Source: a virus (taxonomy: Duplodnaviria > Caudoviricetes). From it: a stretch of 24,418 nt of DNA. Under the pieces are notes generated by a model, which saw nothing but the letters and a program-made list of their open reading frames with translations, was not told where the DNA came from and made no database searches. The stretch is from the IMG/VR virus record IMGVR_UViG_3300017913_000109, positions 1 to 24,418 of that record; one strand, written 5' to 3'. Positions 10,336 to 24,418 of this stretch are shown here, one piece after another. The first letter of the stretch is position 1; each line of letters opens with the position of its first letter. The translations under genes and the position numbers were made by a program.

Positions 10336-11297
10336 TAGCCAAACCCTGGTATGGAACCAATCCCTGATAAAATATCAAACAAACCTGGCGTTCCTGGTGT
10401 TGTTATTGATGCACTAGGAAGTTGGCCTAGAATGCCTGTGCCTGTCTGTAATGCCTGACCAGGATAACCAAGGTTAGCTAGTGTTTGCTGACGCGCTGCA
10501 TTTAGCATCTGCTGTTGTTGCTGTTGCGCTAGTGCCGCTGCACGTTGTTGCTGTTCCAGACCGCGCATACCTTGACCAAACATCTGACCGCCTAAACCTG
10601 TTAGACCGCCCGCTGCTGATTGTTGGATGTTTGCCGCTTGGAATTGACCTTGATAATTGGCTTGATTTGCTGCTTGCTCAAGTTGGGCTTGCTGTAGTGC
10701 AAACTGATTAGCCGCTTGCATATTGCCCTGACGTGCCGCTTGCTCTCTAGCCGCCGCAGCTTCACGCGCTTGCTGTGCAAGTTGTGATGCTTGGAATTGT
10801 TGCTGCGAAGCCATTGTTCGCGCTGCTTGTGTCTGCCCAATGTCAAACTGACCAGAACGCAATGCTGTTTCAAATGCTTGCTGACGTTGCTGTGCTGATA
10901 ACGCACCCGCTTGACGTAGAGCCTCACCCGCTAAAATACCCTCTTGCACGGCTTGACGTGATCCACCAAATGCCCCTGCGCGTTGTGCTTGTGCCGCTAA
11001 GTTCTCAGAAGCCAACTGACGCTGACGCTCAATGTCTGCCTGTCCCGCTTCGATAACTTGCTGTTGATAAGGGGACATATATGGCTGCAAATTTGTTGTA
11101 GCCAATTGACCTACTTGTATTTGACCAGGTGCTTGTGCCGCCTGAACCGCACCAACACCCTGCATGGTTTGCGCTGGGCCTACCTGTGCCGCTTGCATTC
11201 CAGTGGGTGTAAAGCTGCCTAAACGTCCGTAAATATCACCCGCTTGCGTTTGATACTGTTGGGCTTGTCCAAAGATATTTGATGTGTTGGGTATCAT
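10335..11297 (-). CDS. Gln/Ala-rich internal virion (ejection/pilot) protein
   Basis: YMSPYQQQVI and AGAFGGSRQAV motifs, and a G-rich hydrophobic C-terminus (GLFDILSGIG). Confidence 0.7.
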   Translation of the reverse strand: MIPNTSNIFGQAQQYQTQAGDIYGRLGSFTPTGMQAAQVGPAQTMQGVGAVQAAQAPGQIQVGQLATTNLQPYMSPYQQQVIEAGQADIERQRQLASENLAAQAQRAGAFGGSRQAVQEGILAGEALRQAGALSAQQRQQAFETALRSGQFDIGQTQAARTMASQQQFQASQLAQQAREAAAAREQAARQGNMQAANQFALQQAQLEQAANQANYQGQFQAANIQQSAAGGLTGLGGQMFGQGMRGLEQQQRAAALAQQQQQQMLNAARQQTLANLGYPGQALQTGTGILGQLPSASITTPGTPGLFDILSGIGSIPGFG

Positions 11298-19941: not shown

Positions 19942-21201
19942 TTACGCAATCCCGCGCAAATTCCTTCTAATAGGCTCTCCCCATTCAGCCGCAGGCTTAT
20001 ATCCGACAGCTAAATAACGGAACGCATCGGCACCGTGGGAAGTCCAATCATGCAACGGTCTGCCACGCCAAGTTTTCAGTCTTTCGTCATAATCCCTGCG
20101 GTATTGTCTAAGTGCCTCAATACCTCTGGTGCATTTGCCTTCATCAAACCAACAGCGTGGGATCATGCTACGCGCAGCCTGTATGCCATCCTCTACCGCT
20201 AGTTTCGGCGCAATCTCAATGTTCCGTATGCCCAGCGCGTCAAGCGTTTCAAGCCTGCTTTTCCCTGTTCCCAGTTCCTTGACTTGGACATCATGCGGCA
20301 AAATGTGTTGCTCGTATTGGTAGTCTTTGTCCAAGAGAACTTTTGCATAGTGATCTAACCCTACTCCGCTGTTTTCGTAATAATCTATAATCCTAACCTC
20401 ACGGCCTACGAACTGGGCGAACCAAATTGCGGTGCTGTCGCCTATTCCTAAGTCCCATGCAGTGATGACAGATGCCGCACGATCATATGGCACCTTGGTG
20501 ATGCGCCCTTGCTCAGTCGCTTCTTTCATTTCCCTTGAAAAGAACGCCCCAACAATTGCCGCTTCAAAACTACACTCAAATTCTTGCAAGTAGCGGTCAT
20601 CCCCCATTGTCCGTCTTGCTTCATCAAGTTCCTCTTGATCCAGTATTGATGTTTCAGATGCTTTGAACATTTCGGCATACCAGTTTGGATCGTTTTGTGC
20701 TTCATGCCAGATTTCCCAGAAATCGTTTTTGCCTTTGGGTGTTCCAATGAATGTTGCCTTACCTTTGCGATCCGTAAGTGCGGGGCGAATAACTGTGGGC
20801 CACGCTGATGCAGGGAAGTCGGCAGGCTCATCCAATACGACAGCATCAAAGAACAAGCCGCGCATGGCATCGTAGTTATCTGCACCAAATAGACGTATTC
20901 GCGCACCGTTAGGGAAATCTATTCTTAGCTCAGAGGCATTGACCTCTATACCAGGTATAACGGCTGTGAACTCTTTGAGGTAATCCCATGCAATTGCTTT
21001 GGCCTGTCGGTAATATGGAGCGATGTAAGCTACGCGAACATTCTTGCGCTGAATTGTAAGAGCATCCCGAATAAGGTCATTGATCGCTGCTACTGTTTTA
21101 CCGAAGCGTCTATGAGCAACGAGGCAAGCAAAGCGTTCTTTCCTGTTATGGAAGTCTTGTAAATGCGCTCTTGGCTTATAGGGGATTTCTATGACTGCCA
21201 T
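19942..21201 (-). CDS. terL: Terminase large subunit
   Basis: Walker A HRRFGKT, Walker B VVLDE, motif III GTPKG, nuclease motifs WDLG..D and HDWTSHGADAFRY. Confidence 0.95.
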   Translation of the reverse strand: MAVIEIPYKPRAHLQDFHNRKERFACLVAHRRFGKTVAAINDLIRDALTIQRKNVRVAYIAPYYRQAKAIAWDYLKEFTAVIPGIEVNASELRIDFPNGARIRLFGADNYDAMRGLFFDAVVLDEPADFPASAWPTVIRPALTDRKGKATFIGTPKGKNDFWEIWHEAQNDPNWYAEMFKASETSILDQEELDEARRTMGDDRYLQEFECSFEAAIVGAFFSREMKEATEQGRITKVPYDRAASVITAWDLGIGDSTAIWFAQFVGREVRIIDYYENSGVGLDHYAKVLLDKDYQYEQHILPHDVQVKELGTGKSRLETLDALGIRNIEIAPKLAVEDGIQAARSMIPRCWFDEGKCTRGIEALRQYRRDYDERLKTWRGRPLHDWTSHGADAFRYLAVGYKPAAEWGEPIRRNLRGIA

Positions 21202-21626: not shown

Positions 21627-21731
21627 AAAATGAAAGACCCCCCGAACATACCCGCGTTCAGGGGGTCAGTGAAGGAGAGCCTTGTGTATGGAGCACATAC
21701 GACCAACAGGGAGGGAGAAGGGTCGGCTCTT
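21627..21731 (-). ncRNA. Putative stand-alone sRNA (~105 nt): three-way junction with an anti-SD loop, plus intrinsic terminator
   Basis: AGAGCC[GACC-CUUCUCCCUCCCUGUU-GGUC][GUAUG-UGCUC-CAUAC]ACAA-GGCUCU-CCUUCACU-GACCCCC.GAAC..GUUC.GGGGGUC-UUUCAUUUU; a -10 element lies 7 nt upstream. Confidence 0.6.
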
Positions 21732-23462: not shown

Positions 23463-23491
23463 ATTATACAGCATCCTTACTTATTGCTAAA
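23463..23491 (-). promoter_or_regulatory. Candidate promoter for the replication genes
   Basis: Minus strand TTTAGC-N17-TATAAT (perfect -10), about 50 nt upstream of the initiator ATG. Confidence 0.5.
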
Positions 23492-24418
23492 GCCCTCAGT
23501 CTCTTGGCTGGGGGTTTTTTCTGCTTCCTTGATACACAAGCCAATACGCATTGCGATCTGCGGAACAATCGCATTTCCTAATCCTTTAAGTCTGTCCACC
23601 CTTCTGGGTATCCCATTAGCCACTCTACCCACTGCGGGTTCAGGCTTCCAACGCGCTGCGGCTCCGATCTCTTTGCCACCACTCCCAACTGAGTGTTCTG
23701 CCTCTCGTTCCGATACAAATTCATGTTCTCGCCACTGTCCTTGTAGTCTCGCGCTGTTGGTGTGGGCCACATCGTCCGCGCTACCACTTCCTCTAGGTTT
23801 CCGTAGTCGTCTGCTCTTTTCGCTAACTTTGGCGTTAGATTTGCTGCCATTGCTGACGATGCGCGAGGCGTTGGCCACATCCTCACGTCTGTTCTCAGGC
23901 TCTTTCCTTGGTTGCCCCCTGTCGTTCCTTGACTGTCGGCTGCTGATGGCGTTGCCCACATTTCTGGCGATGATCCAAACTCTGTCTCGTCTGTGAGGTG
24001 CGTCAACGGCACAAGCTGGAACAACGAATGCCCTTGAGGCGTAGCCTTCCCCTTCCAGGTCAGATAACACTTCGCTGAGCCCCATAGTGACGTGCCCATA
24101 AACATTTTCGTAAACGCACCAAGTGGGTCGTTTGGCTTTAACAATGGAAAGAATGTATGGCCAGATATGTCTGTCATCTTCACGGCCTCTGCGCTCCCCG
24201 GCAAGTGAAAATGGTTGGCATGGGTATCCTGCTGTGAGGATGTCGCAGTCTGGAACAAGTCCATCTGGGTCATTTGCTAACTCCTTAACGTCTTTTGCAA
24301 TCGGCACATCAGGCCAATGCTTTGCAAGTATCTTACGCGACCATTCTTCAATATCACAAAACAAAACAGGAGAACTTAACCCTGCCCACTCAAAGCCAAG
24401 AGAAAAGCCACCTATTCC
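23477..24418 (-). CDS. C5-cytosine DNA methyltransferase, catalytic (alpha-like) chain; 5' end outside the window
   Basis: Frame is open to the window edge. GIGGFSLG (motif I), GYPCQPFS (IV), ENV (VI), HRRDRVWI (VIII), LGNAIVPQ (X); no recognisable motif IX. Confidence 0.92.
   Translation of the reverse strand, partial: GIGGFSLGFEWAGLSSPVLFCDIEEWSRKILAKHWPDVPIAKDVKELANDPDGLVPDCDILTAGYPCQPFSLAGERRGREDDRHIWPYILSIVKAKRPTWCVYENVYGHVTMGLSEVLSDLEGEGYASRAFVVPACAVDAPHRRDRVWIIARNVGNAISSRQSRNDRGQPRKEPENRREDVANASRIVSNGSKSNAKVSEKSRRLRKPRGSGSADDVAHTNSARLQGQWREHEFVSEREAEHSVGSGGKEIGAAARWKPEPAVGRVANGIPRRVDRLKGLGNAIVPQIAMRIGLCIKEAEKTPSQETEGFSNK
23489..23520 (+). terminator. Plus-strand (antisense) intrinsic terminator inside the methyltransferase 3' end
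   Basis: GCCCUCAGUC-UCUU-GGCUGGGGGU then a U-run; three G-U pairs form only on the plus strand. Confidence 0.6.
23578..24273 (-). CDS. Nested +1-frame ORF: putative second (beta-like) chain of the methyltransferase
   Basis: TAAGGAG 7 nt before ATG 24273; three MW(P/A)TP.A modules; C-terminal LNPQWVEWLMGYPEGWTD is motif IX-like. Confidence 0.8.
   Translation of the reverse strand: MTQMDLFQTATSSQQDTHANHFHLPGSAEAVKMTDISGHTFFPLLKPNDPLGAFTKMFMGTSLWGSAKCYLTWKGKATPQGHSLFQLVPLTHLTDETEFGSSPEMWATPSAADSQGTTGGNQGKSLRTDVRMWPTPRASSAMAANLTPKLAKRADDYGNLEEVVARTMWPTPTARDYKDSGENMNLYRNERQNTQLGVVAKRSEPQRVGSLNPQWVEWLMGYPEGWTDLKD

Follow-up and report, generated by a model that had tools for sequence, protein, structure and literature searches.

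A nested +1 reading frame in a marine phage methyltransferase gene and the two-chain cytosine-C5 enzyme that it probably completes

The locus and its two reading frames

The window, i.e. the whole stretch of DNA analysed here, corresponds to an entire contig of 24,418 bases from a tailed phage whose portal, capsid and adaptor genes are SU10-like. Sequence of this phage was found in seawater runs (up to 0.56 of sampled words), and the phage is marine. The feature described in the initial annotation is real, but it lies on the minus strand, a detail that had been omitted; both frames described below are on this strand.

The catalytic C5 methyltransferase frame, hereafter alpha, encodes 313 aa (23477..24418). 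It matches PF00145 (E = 1.1e-33), which spans alpha residues 1-207 only, and M.HhaI (E = 1.4e-12, residues 1-151). The motif numbers are those that we take to apply, anchored by the M.HhaI alignments. These alignments place motif IV (GYPCQ, with the catalytic Cys) at 24215..24229, motif VI (YENV) at 24101..24112 and motif VIII (HRRDRVWIIA) at 23966..23995, all three being overlapped by beta, the second frame. Motif X (LGNAIVPQIA, 23552..23581) starts at the beta stop. The expected features of a C5 methyltransferase, motifs I-VIII with the catalytic PC and ENV, are thus found in alpha, together with motif X. From the initial list of motifs (I, IV, VI, VIII and X), only motif I has to be qualified: it is partial because the contig begins at GIGG, the contig end cutting its start and leaving alpha 5'-open, and it is intact in relatives. 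No contig prolonged this 5' end, and the RNA runs X17 and X18 hold small shares only, as contigs of relatives that are uninformative on transcription. Between motifs VIII and X, alpha has an open and unconserved variable region of 105 aa (23651..23965; amino-acid identity 0.25, pN/pS 1.11), which is likely a passenger loop. This region, first described as a low-complexity string rich in R, S and E, is indeed biased (39% R+S+E over the 105 residues) but not truly low-complexity.

The nested frame, beta, is an ORF of 231 aa with an ATG start, offset by +1 relative to alpha (23578..24273). It is free of stops and lies wholly within alpha (24273..23578 within 24418..23477), as initially reported, and the overlap, announced as about 700 nt across the PCQ and ENV codons, measures 696 nt and includes motif VIII as well. 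The ribosome-binding word also stands: a Shine-Dalgarno-like TAAGGAG (24281..24287), inside the alpha codons V-K-E and marked by a codon bias, lies 7 nt before the beta ATG, and a +1-frame TAG sits between the two. Beta has no match in Pfam or NCBIfam; it is identified by its match to phrog_1008 ("DNA methyltransferase", E = 6.6e-38), by its open frame and by selection.

In the layout of beta, a conserved N-terminal part of about 105 residues with a predicted hairpin is followed by modules of 27-50 residues starting with W-x-T-P, then by a motif-IX-like block. The hairpin of the window beta comprises residues 70-88 (24010..24066; strands at 69-77 and at 83-90, from a model of low confidence) and belongs to the interface predicted for the pair of a relative (L001, see below). 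Module parsing then gives three modules, drawn from a shuffled pool and overlooked in the initial annotation: WATPSAAD... (27 aa, type 4, 23878..23958), WPTPRASS... (36 aa, type 0, 23770..23877) and WPTPTARD... (42 aa, type 7, 23644..23769). The block that follows (LNPQWVEWLMGYPEGWTDLKD, 23581..23643) has a pN/pS of 0.24 in beta vs. 1.26 in alpha. A motif IX at the end of beta had been claimed; the motif-IX-like block is present, but the actual ORF ends in ...PEGWTDLKD. With motif X on alpha and this block on beta, both C5 motifs are covered by the pair.

Two other out-of-frame ORFs were observed on the minus strand of the window, inside the terminase gene and another late gene (20526-20906, 126 codons; 10601-10927, 108 codons), and both fall within the range of chance runs. 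Terminator-like hairpins occur at 21636-21667 (minus strand), after a 126-aa gene upstream of the terminase, and at 23489-23518 (plus strand), at the alpha 3' end; their total in the window scan was near chance. Scans for promoters and for terminators, like the fold around the beta start, did not rise above chance.

Conservation of the nested frame and selection

We searched for viral relatives with alpha as the query and kept the best 80 of 220, beta not being used in the selection. The set includes 73 distinct nucleotide sequences, and the 55 below 90% alpha identity were used for the selection statistics. Three of the checks proposed with the initial annotation could be made on this material (an open +1 frame in homologues, a conserved Shine-Dalgarno and suppressed synonymous variation), and each gave the expected result.

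In all 80 of these best relatives, the +1 frame is open from the start to motif IX. It is open across the PC codons for 170-305 codons in 79 of them according to our script, and the last one (L057, with GDPCQ) proved the same by eye; the +2 frame over the same overlap contains runs of 11-35 codons only. With the window included (81 sequences), the start lies in the 40-70 nt before the PC codons, mostly at 50 nt, and is ATG in 69 and GTG in 12. A Shine-Dalgarno-like word is found 7-8 nt upstream of this start in 80 of the 81 sequences, a +1-frame stop occurs one codon upstream of it in 69, and all 81 reach LNPxWVEWLMG or the variant WVAWLMG in the +1 frame. The alpha codons that spell the Shine-Dalgarno are biased as well, with AAG for 52 of 53 Lys vs. 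128 of 182 elsewhere in alpha, and GAG for 41 of 49 Glu vs. 100 of 217 elsewhere, these counts coming from related and not independent sequences.

Among the 55 non-redundant sequences, no +1-frame stop was found in 10,868 overlap codons, vs. 121 in 2,304 and 99 in 1,045 codons outside the overlap; inside it, the +2 frame has 577 stops in 10,553 codons. The same holds over motifs IV-VIII alone (102 codons; 0 stops in 5,596 codons). For comparison, the +1 runs in 12 other window genes reach 26-130 codons. The lengths of alpha and beta covary (r = 0.98); modules are therefore gained or lost in whole-codon steps, alpha staying open.

Selection was then compared between the two frames, from uncorrected pairwise pN and pS values on the 55 sequences. 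Alpha is constrained before the overlap (pN/pS 0.19, pS 0.75) and after it (pN/pS 0.20, pS 0.83). Over motifs IV-VIII, it is still constrained (pN/pS 0.30) and pS is down to 0.45. In the variable region, alpha is neutral (pN/pS 1.11, pS 0.46, identity 0.25) and beta is constrained (0.68). Over the last block of beta, alpha has a pN/pS of 1.26 with a pS of only 0.13, while beta has a pN/pS of 0.24. The synonymous variation of alpha, 0.75-0.83 outside the overlap, is thus only 0.13-0.46 within it. Purifying selection acts on alpha up to motif VIII and is then handed to beta, and the dual coding is real and conserved.

Predicted assembly, WPTP modules and alternative explanations

We propose that the two frames encode two chains of one DNA cytosine-C5 methyltransferase, the nested chain bearing the recognition modules, and we give this whole explanation a probability of about 0.72. 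Its core, an internal start at TAAGGAG-N7-ATG and two chains forming one enzyme, is highly probable. Ribosomes would start internally at this site and produce a separate beta chain. Alpha would bring the SAM-binding and catalytic motifs I-VIII and X; motif IX of beta would pack on motif X of alpha, and the hairpin on the strand before motif VIII, which would complete an M.HhaI-like enzyme. The WPTP modules would act as target-recognition domains, one docked at a time. They would be swapped between phages by in-frame recombination at similar module ends, with alpha reading through them as a dispensable loop. The enzyme would be produced alongside the replication genes and would methylate new phage DNA against host restriction. 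The initial reading as an M.EcoHK31I-like pair of chains passed all the computational tests run, but it understated beta, which is more than a carrier of motif IX since it bears the WPTP array.

For the proposed co-folding of both chains, we used as a stand-in the complete L001 pair (alpha 66% and beta 70% identical to those of the window) with SAM, in three runs and with three controls. The pair scored 0.91 and the best control 0.02; the mark set for this score is reached by 116 of 157 solved complexes and by 2 of 215 mismatched pairs. The runs agree in at least 65% of contacts, with a partner pLDDT of at least 55. The confident contacts join beta 218-241 (motif IX) to alpha 285-309 (motif X) and beta 78-89 to alpha 138-156, and the last module is included. 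The beta hairpin is thus predicted to pack on the alpha strand preceding motif VIII. This result supports binding without showing it, because split-enzyme halves tend to pass by likeness to solved enzymes. Beta folded alone with AlphaFold2 gives a poor fold (pLDDT 52.8).

Modules could be parsed in 102 of the 121 beta proteins examined. The 287 modules obtained fall into 60 types, 25 of them with at least three members, and form 85 distinct arrays of 1-7 modules. The three modules of the window beta are all of common types, and some of the 25 types are found only in first or middle position.

The same modules are present in single-chain enzymes, which were retrieved when we looked for longer forms. 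We parsed motifs IV-VIII in 254 proteins; the order motifs I-VIII, modules, IX, X is found on one chain in 170, with 1-17 modules, a share that is not a family frequency because the searches were seeded with such proteins. The others have the order I-VIII, X, modules, IX (11), motifs IX and X without modules (11), no match for motif IX (54) or another arrangement (8). Aligned to beta, the single-chain profile covers the modules and motif IX (probability 98.8%). It also puts the block on M.HhaI residues 271-316, with a score of 0.7 that is not significant alone, and the match of the block to the EcoHK31I-like beta has a probability of 14%; the alignments behind the motif IX assignment are therefore weak. 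The model of a single-chain relative with one module (pLDDT 81.5) resembles M.HhaI over its entire length (Z 25.2, rmsd 3.2, 247 aligned), with a pLDDT of only 56-71 for the module block; of this alignment, the fold search gives the end points only. Among the proteins encountered, P0150, P0153, P0187, P0190 and P0392 represent both the single-chain C5 methylases whose WPTP array (1-17 modules) is in frame and the permuted chains (I-VIII, X, modules, IX). Some beta-like chains continue into adenine or N4-cytosine methylase domains (PF05063, PF01555; P0138, P0170 and P0181); in others, a helicase, polymerase or homing-nuclease domain follows. These are either true fusions or read-through gene calls.

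In phi3T-type enzymes, a module array lies between motifs VIII and IX. More generally, the recognition region of C5 enzymes is located in the interval between motifs VIII and IX, according to PMC3404938. The WPTP modules are at the position of a recognition domain, because the single-chain relatives hold them between these two motifs. The recognition region is thus likely on beta, in the form of an array, and the modules are probably target-recognition domains. That each has its own specificity, with one docking at a time, is an analogy to which we give only a slight preference. The module profile has no significant match with two phi3T methyltransferases (best E = 0.16) or with the EcoHK31I-like proteins, and profile searches aligned no module to a solved recognition domain. 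Beta itself gave nothing significant against solved structures, by sequence or by profile, and its nearest clusters in the ESM Atlas are unnamed viral proteins, with a recognition score under the useful mark. We also compared module types with site depletion in the flanks of 59 loci. From 364 tests, 4 passed the Bonferroni threshold when naive, and module type did not predict site depletion in these 59 loci once relatedness was controlled. The link of one module with CGSCG did not hold up (within-cluster p = 0.49; the window has this module and is yet undepleted, with 64 sites against 72). That with CGWCG has a cluster-level p of about 0.02-0.03, which brings no support because it was chosen after the fact.

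The best-placed rival keeps two chains and one enzyme as in M.EcoHK31I and denies that the modules are independent recognition domains: a single specificity, or little of it, would come from the last module or from alpha, the others being spacers or spent copies. The missing match to the phi3T recognition regions and the missing module-to-site link would fit this reading, as would a confident predicted interface that names the last module only and the M.EcoHK31I recognition domain, which is described on alpha. We consider it unlikely, given that upstream modules are conserved by type across phages (the 25 types with at least three members), that purifying selection acts on the module region in beta (0.68) and not in alpha (1.11), and that single-chain arrays reach 17 modules.

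It is much less probable that a single polypeptide is made by a programmed frameshift from alpha into +1 after motif VIII, the upstream ATG being incidental. Such a product could fold, since the single-chain relatives have the same order of parts. A second shift back would nevertheless be needed to include motif X, and no common slippery site emerged (best bin, 13 of 55). The frameshift would also leave unexplained the open +1 frame over motifs IV-VIII (0 stops in 5,596 codons), the fixed start, the biased Shine-Dalgarno codons and the stop one codon upstream (69 of 81).

Similarly improbable is an alpha active alone, with beta as a separate overprinted protein, e.g. one that regulates or inhibits either the methylase or host restriction. 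The alphas of L231 and L240 do hold both motifs IX and X, and a conserved EPxVGRVANGIP stretch precedes motif X in alpha; this stretch, however, has a pN/pS of 1.26 in alpha vs. 0.24 in beta on the same bases. Furthermore, single-chain relatives carry the beta modules and the motif IX block inside the enzyme, and M.EcoHK31I loses its methylation when all beta starts are removed (PMC2836561). Finally, an untranslated +1 frame arising as a by-product of the alpha codon pattern can practically be discarded: the beta N-terminus is partly a shadow of alpha (open random recodings of the EcoHK31I-like alpha score a median of 6.8 bits on the hairpin profile), but when alpha is recoded synonymously, only 5 of 20,000 versions retain at least 231 open +1 codons in a row (median 77), the frame is open in 80 of 80 relatives (best 80 of 220) and selection acts in the beta frame.

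Distribution, gene context and comparison with known systems

With a beta profile, at least 6,761 beta-like clusters were found among 8,000 candidate clusters, and 147 GenBank phage records match beta. Some relatives are cultured phages, with hosts such as E. coli, Paenibacillus and Mycobacterium. The prediction that gene callers would miss beta is only partly borne out: the protein database already contains such clusters, and both frames have GenBank annotations in Paenibacillus larvae phage Tadhana and in phage K1ind3, although they are not annotated as subunits.

In bacterial genomes, 80 loci were found with beta. Of these, 52 show the same layout in full, 3 lack only the motif X match, 19 did not fit one of the patterns and 6 have a different layout; visual inspection of 7 of the 19 found a nested frame in every case and a broken alpha in one. 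In two Rickettsiales loci (L231:3500-4800 and L240:1077-2102), motifs IX and X are on alpha, and the +1 frame, which lacks motif IX, still has the hairpin region and three modules; the division between alpha and beta is therefore not fixed across the family. At L214:3050-4300, alpha ends shortly past motif VIII, and the modules, IX and X are all on the nested frame, an M.AquI-like division that could instead be a frameshift error. L202 and L203 look broken or misassembled. In a tree of 97 catalytic domains, single-chain forms appear in five places among dual forms. With several weak nodes and two outgroups, the direction from nested to single forms is a lead only. We see even odds for the broadest reading, a very large phage family in which a hidden and shuffled +1-frame recognition cassette lies over a catalytic gene and specificities are swapped, the nested form being perhaps ancestral and single chains arising several times. 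If this is true, dozens to thousands of plug-in m5C specificities would be naturally available in the family, and the lone E. coli oddity would belong to a widespread phage design.

The gene after the window methylase is a replication initiator. Among relatives, we scanned 69 of 89 neighbouring ORFs, 22 of which had no match at 1e-10. The named neighbours are mostly primases, resolvases, exonucleases, annealing proteins, PAPS-reductase-like and Mom-like proteins, and a restriction enzyme was named at none of the 69 scanned ORFs. PAPS-reductase-like genes adjoin the methylase at eight loci (L023, L035, L048, L049, L054, L055, L075 and L080) and Mom-like genes are near it at two (L040 and L079), which suggests a DNA-modification cluster.

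The window contains no GTAC or GGWCC, one CCGG, one GANTC and only 12 TCGA; AAGCTT, CTGCAG, CGATCG and AGCGCT are absent and many 6-base palindromes are scarce. GANTC is the most depleted word across related loci, and the closest genome match (L159) is an Alphaproteobacteria bin. Depletion of GANTC would fit an alphaproteobacterial host. Such avoidance shows restriction pressure, not that the window enzyme answers it. The window agrees with a phage that is exposed to restriction and carries an orphan methylase for protection, and it is fairly likely that the phage methylates its new DNA against host restriction with an enzyme made along with the replication genes.

With about 700 bases used for two enzyme parts across catalytic codons, this is among the most demanding gene overlaps; its conservation extends over at least 6,761 protein clusters and is not confined to a single E. 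coli enzyme. If specificity depends on the modules, the targets of a phage methylase are unpredictable from its annotated gene, and a recoded alpha cloned alone would falsely seem "inactive". If the module row sets the targets, the phage could shield its DNA from several host restriction enzymes. The family also opens tests of how selection is split between overlapping frames and of recognition-domain exchange in multispecific methylases.

One of the closest known systems is M.EcoHK31I from E. coli (YGGCCR). According to PMC2836561 and PMC3404938, its beta is nested in the +1 frame of alpha, with motifs I-VIII and X on alpha and motif IX on beta. An E. coli locus that we located via a published primer (L239) agrees with the published description in both size and layout (309 aa for alpha, 176 aa for a beta in +1). 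As in M.EcoHK31I, the window beta is wholly inside alpha, in the other frame and with its own start, and the motifs are divided in the same way. The catalytic domains align (probability 99.5%), and the M.EcoHK31I beta fits the hairpin profile of the phage family in register (E = 3.5e-5), a score equalled by 5 of 472 open recodings. The hairpin and a weak motif IX match suggest, but do not prove, a shared origin. In contrast, the M.EcoHK31I beta starts 79 nt after the PC codons, whereas the window beta starts 50 nt before them, so that the catalytic Cys codon is dual-coded in the window. The M.EcoHK31I beta has no WPTP modules, and its recognition domain has been described on alpha; in the window, the alpha variable region is unconserved and beta is constrained there. 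M.EcoHK31I also adjoins a NotI-family restriction endonuclease, while the window gene is an orphan among replication genes: the adjacent cognate endonuclease of EcoHK31I/EaeI-type restriction-modification is absent from the downstream gene, the upstream side being off the contig.

M.AquI (CYCGRG) also consists of two polypeptides, the smaller with the distal variable region and motif IX (PMC3404938). According to the same source, its beta has motif X as well, whereas in the window X is on alpha and beta is fully nested. The phi3T-type multispecific C5 methyltransferases of Bacillus phages (PMC12707154) resemble the window enzyme and its single-chain relatives in having tandem interchangeable modules. 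Their array, like that of the single-chain relatives, lies between motifs VIII and IX. They are single chains, unlike the window enzyme, whose modules and motif IX are in a different frame from the catalytic motifs, and the WPTP and phi3T modules have no significant sequence match, the profile comparison aligning the catalytic domain only. PHROG 1008, the "putative Mte8-like protein" of K1ind3 and the second "DNA-cytosine methyltransferase" of Tadhana belong to the same beta family, nested in +1 in their alphas. These are database labels only, and the portions available of PMC6070908 and PMC5582158 do not describe the nested subunit. In the literature outside subscription journals, REBASE notes and bioRxiv supplements, which may bear on this point, we came across no account that presents the phage family as nested two-chain enzymes. 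The window gene combines a predicted M.EcoHK31I-like assembly with a likely Bacillus phage-like targeting, and belongs fully to neither group.
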